Program-made: the position numbers
Source: Candidatus Fraserbacteria bacterium
Lineage (GTDB): Bacteria > Bipolaricaulota > Bipolaricaulia > RBG-16-55-9
Assembly (NCBI GenBank): GCA_037442925.1
Contig: JBBIPG010000015.1
Coordinates: 1 to 44,292, forward strand
DNA length: 44,292 nucleotides
Reading direction: 5' to 3'
Shown: piece after piece, positions 23,401 through 35,400 of the stretch
Layout of the letters: the number at the start of each line of letters is the position of its first letter
Position numbering within the stretch: the first letter of the stretch is position 1

Positions 23401-26400
23401 AAATGAGCTATATACGAGAGCGAATGGAACTCGAACGAAAGCACATCAACCGGCTTCCCCTGGTCTGGATGGGGAGCATTGTGGCTATGGACCAGTTGAG
23501 CAAACTGGCGGCGGCTACCCATCTCGAGCCGGGACGCTCTGTGCCGGTCCTAGGCGAATTCTTCCGGCTGACGCTGAGCTGGAACTCGGGGGGGGCTTTT
23601 GGGATCTTAGCAGGGCAGGGATCGCTGCTCACGGTCCTCACCATTGGTGTAGCCGTTACCATCGTGCTGGTCTTATGGCGGGGGGATCTCCGTTCGCGAC
23701 AGATCATGACTGGCTTGGTGTTCATTGCAGGAGGTGCCATCGGCAACCTCATTGATCGGCTCTGGCTCGGAAAGGTCGTCGATTTTCTGGATTTTGGGGT
23801 CTCGCCGGCTCTTCGATGGCCTACGTTCAACATTGCTGATACGGCAATCGTGATGGGAACAGCGCTTCTACTGTGGCGCTTGCTCACTCAGGGGTCCGCA
23901 TATGCGGGGATTTTTCATCGTCTTTGAGGGCTTGGACGGCAGCGGCAAGACGACTCAAGCCAAGCGTCTGGCCCGTTATTTTCGCGAACAAGGTCGTGAA
24001 GTGGTGTCAGTGAAAGAACCAGGAGGAACTCCGGCAGGGGAACGGATTCGAGAGATTCTGCTGGATGAGAGGAGCCATCTGGAACCGCTTACGGAGCTCT
24101 TGTTGTATCAAGCCTCGCGACATGAACTGACACGTCGGGTGATCCGGCCGGCTCTTAAGCGCGGGGCGATTGTGATCTGCCAGCGATATAGCTACTCTAG
24201 CTTGGCGTATCAGGGATTCGGCCGTGGCCTCCCGCTGGAATGGGTGACTCAGCTCACGGAGCAGGCTACGGAGGGACTGAAACCCTCTGTGGCATTCTTT
24301 CTGGAGGTGCCTGTGGAAGAAGGTCTTAGGCGCCTGAAGCAGGAGCGTCGCCCGGATCGCATCGAACGCCAGGGGGTGGAGTTCCTCCGGCGGGTGGAGC
24401 AGGGGTATCACCAACTCGCCGGGCAGAACCCGGAACTGATTCGACTCGACGGGATGAAAAGCCCAGAACGCCTCTTTGAAGATGTGATGCGGGTTCTGGA
24501 GCGAAGGAAGGGGGGAGGGAACGGTGGAGTTTACTTGCACTAAATCGGCTATTACGTTCGGAGTGAAGACAGCCAGTCGTGCCCTAGGAAGCACGCTGCC
24601 CATCCTGGCTGGCATCAAGGTCGAAGCTCAAGAGTCGGAATTGAAACTCATATCCACGGACCTGGAACGAGCGCTCATCGTGACGATCCCCATTGAGAAC
24701 GCCAAGGGCAAGGGGACGTGCGTCATCAACGGACAGCTCCTCTCGAAGATCACCGGTATGCTGCCGGACGAGACGTTGAAGCTGCGGCTCGACGATGCCG
24801 GGGATCGGGTGGAGATCACATCGGGTGAAGCGATCTTTGAACTCTTGCTCCTGCCGGTAGCTGATTTCCCTGAGATCCCGGCCCTTCCTAAGGAGACCCT
24901 GTGCACCATTCAGAGGGAGCGCCTCGTGCGTTCGCTGGAGCGCACAACGTTTGCCGCCATGAGTGCCCGCGAGACCTCACGGCTCAACCTTACGGGTGTG
25001 GATCTTCTCACTCAGGGGGAGAAGATCAAGATGGTCGCCACCAACGGCTATCGGTTGGCGCTTAAGGAAGAGCAGTTGGAGTCATCTGCTCCGGAAGGCG
25101 AATACCTGATCGATGCCGATGCACTGAAAGATCTCCAAAGCATTCTAGGTTCCGTCGAGGACGAACAGGTGAAGATCGCTCAGGGTGGTGGTCATCTCTT
25201 TTTCACCACCGCGCAGGTGATCTTCATCGCACGGGTGATTCAAGAAGAGTATCCCGACTTCGAGCGGGTCATCCCGCGAGATAACCCCGTGGGGCTTCAC
25301 ATGAAGCGTGAGGTTTTCTTGAGTGCTCTGCAACGAGCGGAGATCACCACAGCTGCCGAGTCCGGAGCCGTCATCCTGGAACCTCGTGACTCTTCATTGC
25401 TTATTAAGTCTTCATCAGCCGAAAAGGGCCATACCGAAGAGCGCATTCCGCTGCTTAAGCCCGCAGGCTCTCTGACGATCTCTTTCCGGGGGGAATATCT
25501 CATTGAGGCGCTCAGGCGGATGAGCTCAACGGAAGTCGTGCTCTGGCTGAAAGACTCAGAGAGTGCCGGGCTATTGGAACCCACTGCAGATAGTGACGAA
25601 GATCAGGGCTTCCTCTACGTCTGCATGCCCATCCGGATGGATTAGCCTTTAGTCGTCGTCGTCTCGATCGCTGCGCCCGCGACGGCGAATGAACGTCGGG
25701 ACGTCCCAGTCTCCCACTCGAGGGTCACGCTTGCGCGGGGTTCTCTCATTCAGCTGCGGCTGATACTCTTTTACGAAGTCCTCCTCCGGCTCGATCTCCT
25801 CTAGCTCTTGATCTTCCACTTGTTTAAAGCCCGTCGCGATCACCGTCAGCTTAAGCTTGTCAAAGCCCTCTTTGACCGTGGCCCCAAAGAAGATGTCCGC
25901 CGATTCAGAGACAGCGTCACGAATCAACTGGGCAGCCTCTGTGACTTCTTCCAGGGTGAGATCCAGTCCTCCGGTGACGTTCAAGATCACTTTTTGTGCT
26001 CCCTCAATCGATCCTTCGAGTAAGGGACTGGTGATGGCATTGCGGGCGGCTTCTTTGGTGCGCCCTTCGCCTTCGGCTTCGCCGATCCCCATCATGGCGG
26101 TCCCGGCGCCTCTCATGGTCGCTTCTACGTCGGCGAAGTCTCGGTTGATCAGACCGGGAGTGGTGATCAAGTCTGTGATGCCTTGAACTCCTTGGCGCAG
26201 AATATCGTCGGCCAACTCAAAGGCCTGCATCAGGGTCAGATCGGCCGGCGCGACCTTGAGCAACCGGTCGTTGGGGATGGTGATGAGAGTATCGACATGC
26301 TGGCGCAATTCCTCAATGCCCTTCTTGGCCCTGTCGGCACGCTGGCGACCCTCAAACGTAAAAGGCTTGGTCACAATGGAGACGGTGAGGATTCCCGCCT

Positions 26401-32400: not shown

Positions 32401-35400
32401 CAGTGCTCCCACCGTCACCCCAAAGTGTATGGCCGCTTGGAAGGCCAGCGTGAATGTGATTCCCGAAGCGAGCAGAAACCCGAAGCGATCGGGAGCGCGA
32501 AACGCGATCTCGAAGCCCCGCCACGCCAAGAACGCAAAGAGCCCCAAAACCAGCATGGCTCCAATCAACCCCAACTCCTCTCCGATCACCGACAGAATGA
32601 AATCGTTATAGGCAGAAGGCAGATAGAGCCACTTCTCCCGCCCGGCTCCGAGCCCGCGACCGAAGAGCCCTCCCGATCCCAGTGCCGTCAGCGATTGGAG
32701 TAGGTGGTAGCCCGATCCGCTGGGATCCGCGAAGGGGTTTAGGAATGCGAAGAGTCGCACCCGGCGGTACGGCGCGAGCATCAGCAAGATGGCAACTACC
32801 GGCAGCCCCGCCAGTAAGGGAGCCACCACATGGAGCAACCGGGCGCCCGCCATGAACAGCAGAAAGACGACAATAGCACCATAGATGACCACGAGTGCGA
32901 AATCCGGCTGCGCCAGGGCGATGAGGGCCAGCAAGCCAAAGAGAGTGAGGAAGGGCAAGACGCCCGTCGAGAATTCCTCCAGTTCTCCTGCTGCTTGTTT
33001 TCTTACTAACGCCGCGGCCATATAGATGATGAAGGCCAGCTTCGTGAACTCCGTAGGCTGAACGGAGATCGGCCCGAGACGCAGCCACAATCCATCCGGA
33101 GCGAGCGCCGGCACGAACGTTAGCAGGGTCAACCCCAAGGCGACAAGCAGAAGAATCCCATCGCACGCAAAGAGCTTTCGGTAATCAACCCGCATAAGTA
33201 GAACGAGCAATGTGAACCCAATGACAGTCGCGATCAGTTGCTTGATGAACAAGTATTCTGGGTGCTGATAGCTTTCATATGAGAGAGGTGCGCTGGCCGA
33301 AGCGACCATCACCAACCCAAAGAGCGCCAGGGCAACTGCAACGATCATGAGCGGGAAATCGGGCGACCCAAGGGCTCCATCACCCCACGGTAGTCTCCTC
33401 ACAGAGCCGATGTGGTTCACTTCTTTCATTCAGAGATACGCCCCCCTCAAGACGATAGCTCCCTACGCGCGTGGCAGACGGCTCAGCAGAGCGAGCGCAG
33501 ACAACAACAGGCGGCAATTGGCGTAGATAGTTGTAGCGCGTGGTGCCGAGGGCCCGAAGGACCCCTGCTAAGATGCTGTTGCCAGTTGATCACTTGGTGG
33601 AGTGATGGCTGTCTTAAGGAGGTACGAGCGCACAACTCTCTTGAAATGCTCACCGCGCTCCTCGTAGTTTTTGAACTCATCGAAGCTGGGGGAGGCAGGG
33701 GAGAAGAGACAGATGCTCGGGCCGGATCGAATGACTTCCTCAATCGCACCCTGCAAGTCCTGAACGAGCTGGAAACGTCGATAGCCCAGTGTTTGCAGCA
33801 TGTGCGCCCAGCGCCGGCGCGTCTGTCCCATGAGCAGAACGGCATGGATTTCTCGATTCTGAATCATCTGTGCCAGTTCTCTTATGTCGTCACCCGCATC
33901 GTACCCACCCAATATGAGAACCAAGGGCTCCTCGAACGTCGAGAGTGCCGCGATGGTCGCGGCCGGACTGGTAGCCTTCGAATCGTTATAGAATCGAACC
34001 CCACTCACCTCCGCCACGAACTCCAGACGATGTGGCAATTGCAGGGCTCTCGTAAGATCCAGGCGTTCGTGATGGATCTGGGGATCGATCAAGCGTGCTG
34101 CTCGCAGTGCCGCCGCCAAGTTCTCCCGCTGATGAGCCGGAAGCGGTACGCCAAGAGGTTCCAGCTCTTCCGCGCAGAACTTCCATACGCGAGAGCGAAT
34201 CGTAGAAGGAAGTGCGATGTCACGGTGCACGACAGCATGATCCTCTTCGGTCTGCCGAGCGAAGAGTCGGCACTTCATGGCAAAATAGCGTTCCAGGCTT
34301 CCATGACGATCCAGGTGATGTGGCGCGAAGCGCGTAAAAACACCGATGTGAGGTCGAAAGGTGTCCACATGCTCCAGTTGATAGCTGCTCACTTCAAGGA
34401 CCACCACCGTTTCGCTGTCGATCTCATGTAGACGAGCAATCAGAGGCTGTCCGATGTTCCCGGCGACGACCAGCGGGTAATCGTGAGCCTTGAGCAACTC
34501 CGCCGTGAGATGAGTCGTGGTGGTCTTCCCCACGGTACCCGTGACCGCGATGATCCGTTTGCTCCGGCAGAAACGATATGCCAACTCCAGCTCGCCCAGG
34601 ATGGGAATGCGTCTCACACGAGCCTCTCTGAGCACAGGGGCCGCATAGGGTATGCCCGGTGAAGGGATGACGAGCTCCGCTTGAAGCGCGCTTTGCGTGT
34701 GACCGCCTTCTTCATAACGGACTCCAAGCTGAGAGAGCTCCCGTTTGAGGGCAAGAGATATCTGGGCCTGATCACTGAGGAAGACCTGAGCATGATGCTG
34801 GACGAGAAAGCGAGCAGTAGCCTGGCCGGTGCGACCTGCTCCCAGTACAGTGACGTGCTTCCCGGCTAGTGAGAGATCTTTAGGCATTGTATGGGAATGC
34901 TAGGATGGGAGCAGATCTCCTACCAAGGACAGGCGTCTTGTTATGAGGCCGCGTGAAGCACAACAAGGCGCCGAAAAAGAAAAGGTCACTGCCATTCGAC
35001 AGTGACCTTTTCCACTCTTCTGAGACACTCAGAGGGAATTACTTGCCTTTCTTGCCGCCCTTCTTCTTGCCACCCTTCTTCACCTGCTTCACCCCCTTTT
35101 CAGGAAACAAAGGGAACTGTTTCATCTTTCCCTCAAAATAATTATTATAGTGTATTGGCCCTGTTGTGAATAGTGTGCGCATTACATTCTCAGTCGCATC
35201 GCCTTTCGTGGGGAAGCTCTTTGAATCTGTCCCGGACGCTCCCGTAATATCGCTGGCAAGAGGAAAGGAGATTGCGCATGTTCCCATCACGAAACGTGGC
35301 CATTCTCATCTTCGACGAAGTGGAGGTCCTCGATTTCACTGGCCCCTTTGAAGTGTTTTCTGTCACGGGCAGACGTCAGGCCTTGGAACCGTTTCACGTC

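Follow-up and report, generated by a model that had tools for sequence, protein, structure and literature searches.

Most Bipolaricaulota genomes encode one recognisable peptidoglycan synthase pair, FtsW-FtsI

Outside a single genome (G052), the Bipolaricaulota have one recognisable pair of peptidoglycan synthases, FtsW and FtsI. These bacteria lack aPBPs, RodA-PBP2, MreB and L,D-transpeptidases, so any wall along a cell cylinder would come from the FtsW-FtsI complex, and we assign a probability of about 0.5 to the reading that FtsW-FtsI, guided by FtsZ and FtsA, makes all the peptidoglycan of Bipolaricaulota other than the G052 lineage. Imaged members of the phylum are elongating rods; for example, the central rod of J31 nearly doubles before the mid-cell septum (bioRxiv 10.1101/2025.11.21.689855, section 6). 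Rod shape is known from such imaged members, not from the species analysed here.

The DNA under study (the window) comprises positions 1 to 44,292 of contig JBBIPG010000015.1 from Candidatus Fraserbacteria bacterium, whose genome is called G000 below. A preliminary description proposed that a single divisome SEDS-bPBP pair builds the whole wall; the one recognisable pair holds across the phylum, while 'whole wall' goes beyond gene content and is argued conditionally in what follows.

Division and precursor genes of the window genome

The minus strand of the window at 25649-34887 carries ftsZ, ftsA, an ftsQ-like gene, murB, murC, murG, ftsW and murD. The ftsW gene (32092-33429; PF01098 E 3.6e-100) encodes the genome's one SEDS glycan polymerase, which passes the FtsW model (TIGR02614, 364 bits, cut-off 337.5) and falls below that for RodA (TIGR02210, 280 bits, cut-off 336.7). 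Its Asp276, in an xNDF motif, is invariant among six aligned SEDS proteins and is presumably the catalytic residue. The sole PF00905 match of the genome, on another contig (C5:7665-8594), is FtsI, which scores 48.5% to G052 FtsI versus 27% to G052 PBP2. SxxK, SxN and K[ST]G are present in all 29 FtsI loci scanned, and the alignment agrees that these motifs are intact. The genome has the single SEDS protein and single transpeptidase first reported for it. Both lie in a canonical divisome context, the FtsW-type SEDS gene within murD-ftsW-murG-murC with ftsQ-ftsA-ftsZ, and the bPBP gene after rsmH-ftsL.

FtsZ (25649-26761, minus strand; TIGR00065, 416 bits) is single-copy in G000, with one PF00091 match. 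FtsA (26777-28090, minus strand; TIGR01174, 424 bits) is the only cytoskeletal actin-fold protein found there: local MreB profiles match FtsA, one probable DnaK and nothing else. FtsA is also unusually conserved: in a ranking by identity to the single-contig genome G005 it stands 10th among 434 orthologues. The ftsQ-like gene (28166-28864, minus strand) is assigned by a weak PF03799 match (E 1.1e-3) and by its position between murB and ftsA; its orthologue in G073 matches POTRA_1 (E 2e-14).

Precursor synthesis is well represented. On the minus strand, murB (28861-29898; TIGR00179), murC (29795-31150; TIGR01082), murG (31071-32303; TIGR01133), murD (33568-34887; TIGR01087) and the D-Ala-D-Ala ligase gene ddl (5172-6266; TIGR01205) exceed their NCBIfam cut-offs, as do murF on the plus strand (12800-14179; TIGR01143), Alr of G000 and MurA of G005, and the G005 copy of MraY falls just below (191.4 vs 192.05). 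MurE and MurJ are recognised by Pfam, MurJ being common to G000 and G005; murE (3706-5727, minus strand) encodes three Mur ligase domains, scores 51% to G052 MurE, and is probably annotated with a start too far upstream. A 'full Mur/lipid II pathway' had been claimed, and the precursor genes bear it out except for a D-glutamate source, which was not identified (MurI over cut-off in 0 of 5 genomes). The window also holds the outer-membrane genes bamA-ompH-ompH-fabZ (41280-44269, minus strand; bamA cut by the contig end); lpxD adjoins fabZ in G052, and other genes occupy that spot in G000.

Wall synthases across the phylum

In a census of 184 Bipolaricaulota genomes for each family (MreB threshold E<=1e-40), transglycosylase PF00912, MreB, MreC, YkuD and LpxC were each found in one genome, always G052 (MreB and MreC in 0 of the 183 others). 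Fourteen control genomes gave matches for PF00912 (10/14), MreB, MreC and YkuD (7/14 each). Transpeptidase PF00905 was present in 173 of 184 genomes, with one match in 168 of these, and SEDS PF01098 in 174, with one match in 165. Among the five genomes with several PF00905 matches, the extras are FtsI pieces in G140, G073 and G177 and a broken FtsI-type second copy in G048; PBP2 and an aPBP occur in G052 alone, and PBP2 was not found among the extra matches elsewhere. Of nine double-SEDS genomes two were inspected, G052 having FtsW and RodA and G149 two FtsW genes on duplicated dcw contigs. The rod complex (MreB, MreC, RodA, PBP2) was thus not encountered outside G052, with two of the nine double-SEDS genomes inspected for RodA. 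Nor was the gene set for aPBP-driven polar growth, aPBP and YkuD being absent outside G052 and DivIVA found in 0 of 5 genomes. The absence of aPBP, MreB, MreC and YkuD from G000, and the phylum-wide rule of one SEDS protein and one transpeptidase, were rightly described beforehand.

Most of these genomes are fragmented, and even FtsW or FtsI is missing from 10-11 of 184, so the absences could be artefacts of incomplete bins or of a search pre-filter. In addition, Thermotoga and Deinococcus score 0 for aPBPs in KEGG yet match PF00912, so KEGG zeros are unreliable for this family. However, FtsW and FtsI occur together in 70 of 71 high-quality genomes, and none of the missing families is present in the 70 high-quality genomes other than G052. 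Single-contig G005 and G006 also lack these families, in agreement with the earlier statement that closed genomes hold no bifunctional PBP. Local profiles agree: an unfiltered search of G000 found no transglycosylase (best E 2.6), relaxed filters gave no transglycosylase, MreC or MreD in G000 or G005 (the best MreC match, E 0.011, falls on a window OmpH), and each genome has one SEDS protein and one transpeptidase. With these negative profiles, and with the mre genes physically missing from their site in 22 of 29 other genomes, an artefact is hardly credible and was rejected.

The O-antigen-ligase (Wzy_C) fold is akin to that of SEDS proteins, and a multi-pass O-antigen-ligase-like protein with TPR repeats (Wzy_C E 4e-6, under cut-off) is common to G000 and G005 though their lipid A genes are gone. 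Elongation by a polymerase or cross-linker of an unrecognised family is therefore conceivable, since a new fold would be invisible to profile searches and a few membrane proteins common to both genomes fit no family. We consider it improbable: the Wzy_C protein would more simply be an S-layer or wall-polymer transferase, and among 129 of the 167 membrane or exported orthologues common to G000 and G005 there was no known peptidoglycan synthase beyond those named.

The exceptional genome G052

G052, the only genome in its family, is 93% complete and 5% contaminated, and fits a 5%-contaminated bin (G131) for which the preliminary description noted both aPBP and MreB. Its aPBP is indeed foreign, being 78% identical to a Poribacteria protein and of alien composition, but its elongasome is native. 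Native contigs bear mreBCD-pbp2, rodA, two YkuD genes and lpxC, with elongasome nativeness indicated by tetranucleotide composition (r 0.97-0.98) and flanking orthologues; MreB, MreC, PBP2 and RodA pass NCBIfam cut-offs, and MreD is weak. As only the aPBP is foreign, simple contamination is rejected, and a deep lineage that bears an elongasome is the better reading of G052. The single-pair claim is firmer than first put, because the only aPBP lies on a mis-binned contig.

G052 falls in a basal polytomy, in which monophyly of the remaining genomes is neither supported nor rejected (AU p 0.37), and we infer the direction and number of gene losses. Loss rather than gain is suggested because the elongasome, YkuD and lpxC genes of G052 are spread over five separate native contigs, none of the relatives listed for its PBP2 exceeds 43%, and counterparts persist in the Thermotogota, which have RodA and PBP2, and in the control T. 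maritima, which also matches MreB, PF00912 and YkuD. Probably no aPBP was ever present in the phylum, whose ancestor would have possessed the divisome, an elongasome, an L,D-transpeptidase and lipid A, the last three probably being lost early, near the phylum base. G052, which keeps elongasome and lipid A genes, offers a natural comparison for loss of LPS and of the Rod complex next to the Thermotogota.

How the wall may be built

If FtsW-FtsI makes all the peptidoglycan, lipid II would be produced by the standard route (MurA-G, MraY, Ddl, Alr, MurJ) and then polymerised and cross-linked by this one complex, which would sit, along with FtsQ and FtsL, on an FtsZ ring that FtsA would anchor. The likeliest mode would be zonal growth at mid-cell, with a ring that inserts wall before it constricts and only later makes the septum. 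This would yield a thin, 4-3-linked sacculus that an SLH protein fastens to the outer membrane, while the S-layer and outer membrane would help to hold width and form the polar 'toga'. We infer the presence and extent of peptidoglycan and the place of its growth; possible signs of an anchored and cut wall are SLH and amidase (5/5 genomes each), M23 (4/5 over cut-off), an LCP protein common to G000 and G005, and CsaB in G000 and G052.

In pathogenic Chlamydia, peptidoglycan does not go beyond a septal ring or trace amounts. The main rival, unlikely though to be taken seriously, is that the Bipolaricaulota wall is equally minimal, FtsW-FtsI serving division alone and the cells being shaped into rod and toga, and lengthened, by the S-layer, an LPS-free outer membrane and an SLH/porin tether. 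The J31 preprint (bioRxiv 10.1101/2025.11.21.689855) describes a hexagonal S-layer and three lipid layers but no wall layer, never uses the word 'peptidoglycan', and reports ampicillin resistance although FtsI is the only expected target. According to passages of the respective papers, dried cells of Ran1 collapse to 66 nm (PMC6092417) and Rickettsiales without aPBPs have little peptidoglycan (PMC8406291). Remodelling enzymes are few (DacA, MltG and VanW, like DivIVA, each in 0 of 5 genomes), CsaB was not found in G005, and no chemical demonstration of peptidoglycan in Bipolaricaulota was found in print. The resistance, the collapse and these missing genes, with MurI, also count against a wall made by FtsW-FtsI only. 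On the other hand, SLH, amidase, M23, LCP and MurJ are retained even in a 1.3-Mb genome, free-living planktonic cells would need osmotic support, and a tether confined to a ring would not account for an outer membrane detached at the poles alone.

A second FtsZ in one clade

About 115 genomes, G000 not among them, encode a second FtsZ (FtsZ2; paralogue threshold E<=1e-100) with an N-terminal KH-fold domain. FtsZ2 is found in families f6 (46/50), f10 (4/4) and f11 (67/74), in one of four f5 genomes without the extra domain, and in none of f1-f4, f7, f8 or f9; it is absent from MreB-bearing G052. It passes the FtsZ-model cut-off; on visual inspection the T7 loop and C-terminal FtsA-binding peptide are retained, and the GTP-binding signature is non-canonical. 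MreB-less rod growth might therefore belong to the f6, f10 and f11 clade, whose close relatives bear the name Ca. Bipolaricaulis, with FtsZ2 giving FtsW-FtsI a second, non-constricting track. This proposal, which we think rather unlikely, is compatible with FtsW-FtsI making all the peptidoglycan; lineages with one FtsZ, including this genome, may then be short or round. However, the track role is a prediction from sequence, the gene does not lie beside wall genes in G005, the GTP-binding signature departs from the canonical one, and the KH domain may instead connect division with replication. The predicted N-terminal model (pLDDT 75.8) would fit DciA (Z 8.2, rmsd 3.7, 84 aligned), uS3 (tied at Z 8.2, rmsd 4.3, 80 aligned) and DnaA domain I (Z 6.3) about equally, and its Pfam matches, DnaX_C (E 9e-4) and DciA (E 0.017), are under cut-off. 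It is doubtful that this FtsZ switches the single synthase of the largest clade between lengthening and dividing.

Comparison with other bacteria

Passages of Atwal et al. 2021 (PMC8406291) define 'peptidoglycan-intermediate' (PGi) bacteria by most lipid II genes, at least one SEDS protein with a class B PBP, and no identifiable aPBP, all of which are found in Bipolaricaulota. PGi bacteria also produce a low-abundance peptidoglycan-like wall on which their growth depends, and the same may apply to Bipolaricaulota. Its Table S1 lists Bipolaricaulis 'bana' (ftsW 1, ftsI 1, rodA 0, mrdA 0, aPBP 0) and 'bih' (ftsW only), and the main-text passages do not mention Bipolaricaulota. Of the 16 species curated there, 15 are intracellular, and those imaged are round or pleomorphic, whereas Bipolaricaulota are free-living, the imaged ones are rods, and the loss spans the phylum.

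Closer in lifestyle are Sphaerochaeta and Bullifex, which passages of PMC7738495 describe as not intracellular and without RodA, MreC, PBP1a, PBP2 and PBP1c, two species also lacking MreB, and with peptidoglycan detected in Bullifex. There, elongasome loss gave spheres within one family-level group, in contrast to the elongating rods imaged in Bipolaricaulota and a loss across the whole phylum; that bacteria with the same gene set are spherical counts against a rod built by FtsW-FtsI only. In KEGG, Sphaerochaeta and Bullifex have FtsW and FtsI only. The same holds for Francisella (small pleomorphic coccobacilli, a shape that likewise counts against such a rod), Allofrancisella and some Buchnera strains, which keep LPS and are mostly host-associated, unlike the free-living Bipolaricaulota. 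Passages of PMC9877522 give F. tularensis three PBPs with FtsI as sole synthase, and several carboxypeptidases and lytic transglycosylases, in contrast to DacA in 0 of 5 genomes here.

Polar-growing rods without MreB are known in Hyphomicrobiales and Actinomycetota, the former also without RodA and PBP2, but passages of PMC12516126 have Hyphomicrobiales elongating with aPBPs, which Bipolaricaulota lack together with YkuD. Most likely, the Bipolaricaulota system would work like pre-septal (PIPS) elongation, in which, according to passages of PMC8429850, E. coli and Caulobacter add cylinder wall at the FtsZ ring independently of MreB and PBP2. PIPS in E. coli is FtsI-independent and uses the aPBPs PBP1A/1B, so elongation by FtsW-FtsI only, as would apply here, has no working precedent. 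The Thermotogota share the toga-type envelope, with an Omp-alpha SLH tether, no LPS and an outer membrane detached at the poles, and passages of bioRxiv 10.1101/2021.05.31.446380 report an SLH/CsaB-type tether for Bipolaricaulota; the two differ in the RodA and PBP2 that Thermotogota keep, and T. maritima also has MreB, a transglycosylase and YkuD.

Implications

The gene set itself is known from Francisella, Sphaerochaeta/Bullifex and some Buchnera, and from two rows for Bipolaricaulis left without comment in the 2021 supplement (PMC8406291). No published account was found that couples this gene set with elongating rods throughout a phylum, and we suggest tentatively, at somewhat less than even odds, that Bipolaricaulota are the first bacteria with a rod-shaped, elongating sacculus made wholly by FtsW-FtsI, with no aPBP, Rod complex or actin scaffold except FtsA. 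The result undercuts the published idea of a bifunctional PBP that builds polar appendages as in Caulobacter.

Two ways of lengthening a rod have been described, MreB-guided RodA-PBP2 and class A PBPs, and nearly all Bipolaricaulota genomes lack both. Because the imaged members are elongating rods and nearly all the genomes lack the known lengthening systems, the pure culture of J31 makes it possible to test directly whether a rod can be built by the division machinery and nothing else. Should FtsW-FtsI prove able to form a cylinder unaided, this pair would define the least wall machinery that a rod needs; alternatively, the S-layer and outer membrane may maintain rod shape where wall is scant, and either outcome would be of interest.

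One wall-synthase pair across the phylum

In the window, murD, ftsW, murG, murC, murB, an ftsQ-like gene, ftsA and ftsZ are clustered on the minus strand (25649-34887), and ddl, murE and murF lie elsewhere in the same stretch. The SEDS protein (FtsW/RodA glycan polymerase family) of this cluster passed the FtsW model, failed the RodA model and keeps the conserved Asp276. The sole transpeptidase of this genome (G000; 94% complete, 86 contigs) is encoded on contig C5 after rsmH and ftsL; it is 48.5% identical to the FtsI of G052, a genome of the phylum that also encodes PBP2, versus 27% for that PBP2, and contains all three active-site motifs, as did 29 of 29 FtsI loci scanned.

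Other features of the window deserve mention. FtsA (26777-28090) is unusually conserved, with 67% identity between G000 and the single-contig genome G005 (rank 10 of 434 orthologues; FtsZ follows at 59%, rank 40), and because it is also 63% identical to that of G052, which has MreB, loss of MreB does not account for this conservation. Two proteins of secreted type (14195-15913 and 19049-21880) carry CARDB repeats together with a region resembling lysyl oxidase (PF01186, E 6e-8 and 6e-9). They are encoded close to a PKD protein and a further CARDB protein, and are candidate surface-layer or cross-linking proteins. Adjacent ORFs of 333 and 340 residues (36778-38809), without a Pfam family at E 0.1, have an EamA transporter on one side and a tandem GNAT protein on the other.

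Across 184 genomes of the phylum, the transglycosylase domain PF00912, MreB (E<=1e-40), MreC, YkuD and LpxC were each detected in one genome, which in every case is G052. A transpeptidase was found in 173 of the 184 genomes (one match only in 168) and a SEDS protein in 174 (one match only in 165); because related genomes are not independent, these counts describe a distribution and are not a statistical test. The additional transpeptidase matches were pieces of FtsI (G140, G073, G177), a broken FtsI-type copy (G048), and the PBP2 and class A PBP (aPBP) of G052. The G048 copy (L055, G048:C81:2216-3770) is a second gene, in two frames, ~55% identical to the intact FtsI of that genome. Two of the nine genomes with two SEDS matches were inspected, and the second match reflected a duplicated dcw block in G149 and an extra RodA in G052. 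The FtsW match of four f9-family genomes (G061, G062, G063, G066) contains one TGA near the model end, probably the normal stop.

Control genomes matched as expected in each census search, and local profiles were built to test the pre-filter, that for the transglycosylase from 60 aPBPs. With this profile and filters off, no transglycosylase was found in G000 (best E 2.6). With relaxed filters in six frames, G000 and G005 yielded no transglycosylase, MreC or MreD and one SEDS protein and one transpeptidase each, and the MreB profile matched only FtsA and a probable DnaK. It is thus scarcely credible that the absences are an artefact, and census and local profiles together confirm the preliminary description of a phylum-wide single FtsW-FtsI pair without aPBP or elongasome. 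No transglycosylase domain occurs in any non-contaminant sequence, and the KEGG row 'bana', which we take to be the imaged strain Ran1, is free of aPBPs. The 'bifunctional' PBP named by annotation in a passage on Ran1, a rod with polar appendages (PMC6092417), is therefore without support, as the preliminary description had held.

A screen of proteins present in both G000 and G005 covered 129 of the 167 membrane or exported orthologues that the two genomes share (82 of 90 few-helix and 47 of 77 many-helix proteins), leaving aside those whose identity was known or whose best matches marked them as permease paralogues; it revealed no further known wall synthase, so that a hidden second one was rejected at this level. 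Among the screened proteins, a weak Wzy_C-plus-TPR protein was the one lipid-linked glycan transferase without an assigned function, and an unrecognized polymerase is considered improbable. This multi-pass, O-antigen-ligase-like protein (L286:1781-4159:+ in G005; C28:23531-26110 in G000) is kept in two genomes without LpxC and possibly serves S-layer or wall-polymer glycosylation.

Bactofilin was rejected as a universal substitute for MreB: it was detected, with weak scores, in 143 of 184 genomes, including the MreB-bearing G052, and was not found in families f4 and f7 or in G000 (in the latter also by blastp). The phylum 'bactofilin' (L169-L173) is a repeat protein of ~240 residues that scores weakly against PF04519.

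A lineage with a native elongasome

G052 (93% complete, 5% contaminated, sole member of its family) had been described as a contaminated bin with both aPBP and MreB, an account that holds for the first protein and fails for the second. Its aPBP is encoded on a 6.4-kb contig (GC 0.496) whose tetranucleotide correlation with the rest of the bin is 0.29, versus 0.85 or higher for 19 native pieces 6 kb long, and is 78% identical to a PBP1A of Ca. Poribacteria. This contig is mis-binned, and there are therefore no native aPBPs among the 184 genomes. Contamination was rejected for the contigs with the mre operon, rodA, a second mreB, YkuD genes and lpxC (r 0.93-0.98), and the elongasome is native to G052.

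In G052, mreB-mreC-mreD-pbp2 is flanked by def-fmt on one side and recG-gatC on the other, in a 35-kb contig whose composition is normal; def or fmt directly adjoins recG in 22 of 29 further genomes (eight families), and in the other seven the site has another neighbor (five) or a contig edge (two). rodA is flanked by an Asp23-like gene and by ubiE; in G000 these two, as stop-to-stop frames, are separated by 4 bases, and in G005 the site was not found. The second mreB and the lipid A genes lpxC and lpxD, as well as two YkuD genes, lie on further native contigs. The best non-self matches of the G052 PBP2 are 37-43% identical, with none above 43% among the best 120 of 5855, and those of the second MreB are 49-56% identical and spread across many phyla (among 600 candidate stretches). 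Recent transfer was rejected, since no donor was seen among these listed relatives, a conclusion that does not extend to an old transfer.

LpxC and, on the dcw contig, LpxD (loci L325, G052:C7:7324-8109, and L051:4146-5480) mark G052 as a deep lineage predicted to bear lipid A, in a phylum where LpxC was found nowhere else. G000 and G005 nevertheless both have an LptF/G permease. A gene for an IscB RNA-guided endonuclease (L034:4617-5939:+, G052:C14; NF040563, 326 bits) lies a few kb away from the mre operon.

A quick tree of RpoB alone gave a basal polytomy that includes G052, as did five concatenated proteins (LG+G4, 1784 columns, 24 ingroup rows, 5 outgroup rows, none from Thermotogota). 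Monophyly of the genomes other than G052 was neither supported nor rejected (AU p 0.37), so neither tree places G052 as sister to all others. Thermotogota, described as the neighboring phylum in passages of two preprints (bioRxiv 10.1101/2021.05.31.446380; 10.1101/2025.11.21.689855), keep RodA and PBP2. Because of this, and because G052 sits in the basal polytomy, the simplest history is that the elongasome was kept in G052 and lost early elsewhere, in one loss or several. In the stretches fetched for RpoB (L176-L204), no ORF after rpoB is shared with the outgroups; in this phylum, therefore, rpoB does not appear to be followed by rpoC.

Evidence for and against a wall and a proposed model for its synthesis

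Several features argue for a wall: SLH domains and an amidase in five of five genomes and M23 in four of five over cut-off, MurJ and an LCP protein common to G000 and G005, and CsaB upstream of rsmH-ftsL-ftsI in G000 and G052. Counted against a wall, or unexplained, are the failure to find CsaB in G005 and DacA, MltG, VanW and DivIVA in any of five genomes. The glutamate racemase MurI likewise gave no match over cut-off in five genomes (G000, G005, G006, G052, G085), and the T. maritima control was also silent; MurD is present in genomes without such a match.

The cultured strain J31 forms rods of 0.4 x 0.8-2 um that nearly double in length before a mid-cell septum appears. Its toga bears an S-layer, three lipid layers are present, and the strain resists ampicillin; the preprint sections covered never mention peptidoglycan (bioRxiv 10.1101/2025.11.21.689855). 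A wall that is septal only or present in traces, with shape held by the S-layer, is thus a tentative alternative to be taken seriously, if on the doubtful side given the wall-associated proteins.

The explanation we favor, at about even odds, is that one pair builds both cylinder and septum. FtsZ, anchored by FtsA, would place FtsQ-FtsL-FtsW-FtsI at mid-cell; FtsW-FtsI would extend the cylinder first and form the septum second, and the S-layer and outer membrane would form the toga and help to hold width. The closest analogue known to work is the mid-cell elongation of Caulobacter, described as FtsZ-dependent and without need of MreB or PBP2 (PMC8429850). However, E. coli mid-cell elongation uses aPBPs and not FtsI, whereas Bipolaricaulota have FtsW-FtsI only, so lengthening by FtsW-FtsI is without precedent and is inferred by elimination. 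The earlier proposal that one pair builds the whole wall is supported in part: one recognizable pair is present across the phylum, and it may build the whole wall.

A second FtsZ with a predicted KH-fold domain

G005 encodes a second FtsZ (L271:6569-7918:+, G005:C1:339572-340918; further loci L334-L363) that is 48% identical to the window FtsZ and has an extra N-terminal domain of ~85 residues. At E<=1e-100 it was found in 118 of 184 genomes, with an alignment that starts at the N-terminus in 115, and not in the window's family or G052. The KH-domain form occurs in families f6, f10 and f11, and one f5 match lacks the extra domain. A type II KH fold is predicted for this domain, which matches DciA and uS3 at Z 8.2 and DnaA domain I at Z 6.3; the full-length model is poor (pLDDT 57) and matched only tubulin folds, and an atlas search gave unnamed clusters and leads below 0.9. 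A literature search for Bipolaricaulota and FtsZ listed two ecological papers and turned up no report of this protein. Two tubulin/FtsZ matches also occur in f5, f7 and one f9 genome (G095-G097, G051, G068), apparently unlike the KH-domain paralogue. Rods may be confined to the clade with the second FtsZ, a reading that is compatible with cylinder synthesis by FtsW-FtsI and that we regard as unlikely.

Relation to known systems

The single-pair gene set is already known. Lack of aPBPs defines the 'peptidoglycan-intermediate' class, and in Table S1 of the paper describing it FtsW and FtsI are the only entries for Bipolaricaulis, a row type shared with Francisella, Allofrancisella, Sphaerochaeta and some Buchnera (PMC8406291). 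Sphaerochaeta and Bullifex lack RodA, MreC, PBP1a and PBP2 and are spheres, Bullifex having peptidoglycan (passage of PMC7738495), and FtsI is described as the only synthetic PBP of F. tularensis (passage of PMC9877522). The table did not establish the Bipolaricaulota case, because it has false zeros for Thermotoga and Deinococcus, which have PF00912 matches here.

No discussion of the missing aPBP and elongasome in Bipolaricaulota was found in the literature searched, which excluded most subscription papers and the supplements of the J31 preprint and PMC6092417, which may list wall genes; Bipolaricaulota go unmentioned in the text and one supplement of PMC12516126, and the MreB passage of PMC7509429 concerns another organism. 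What is new is a single pair phylum-wide in free-living cells, paired with elongating rods, and a relic lineage that keeps the elongasome and lipid A genes. With a cultured rod, J31, at hand, a basic question of bacterial shape becomes directly testable.
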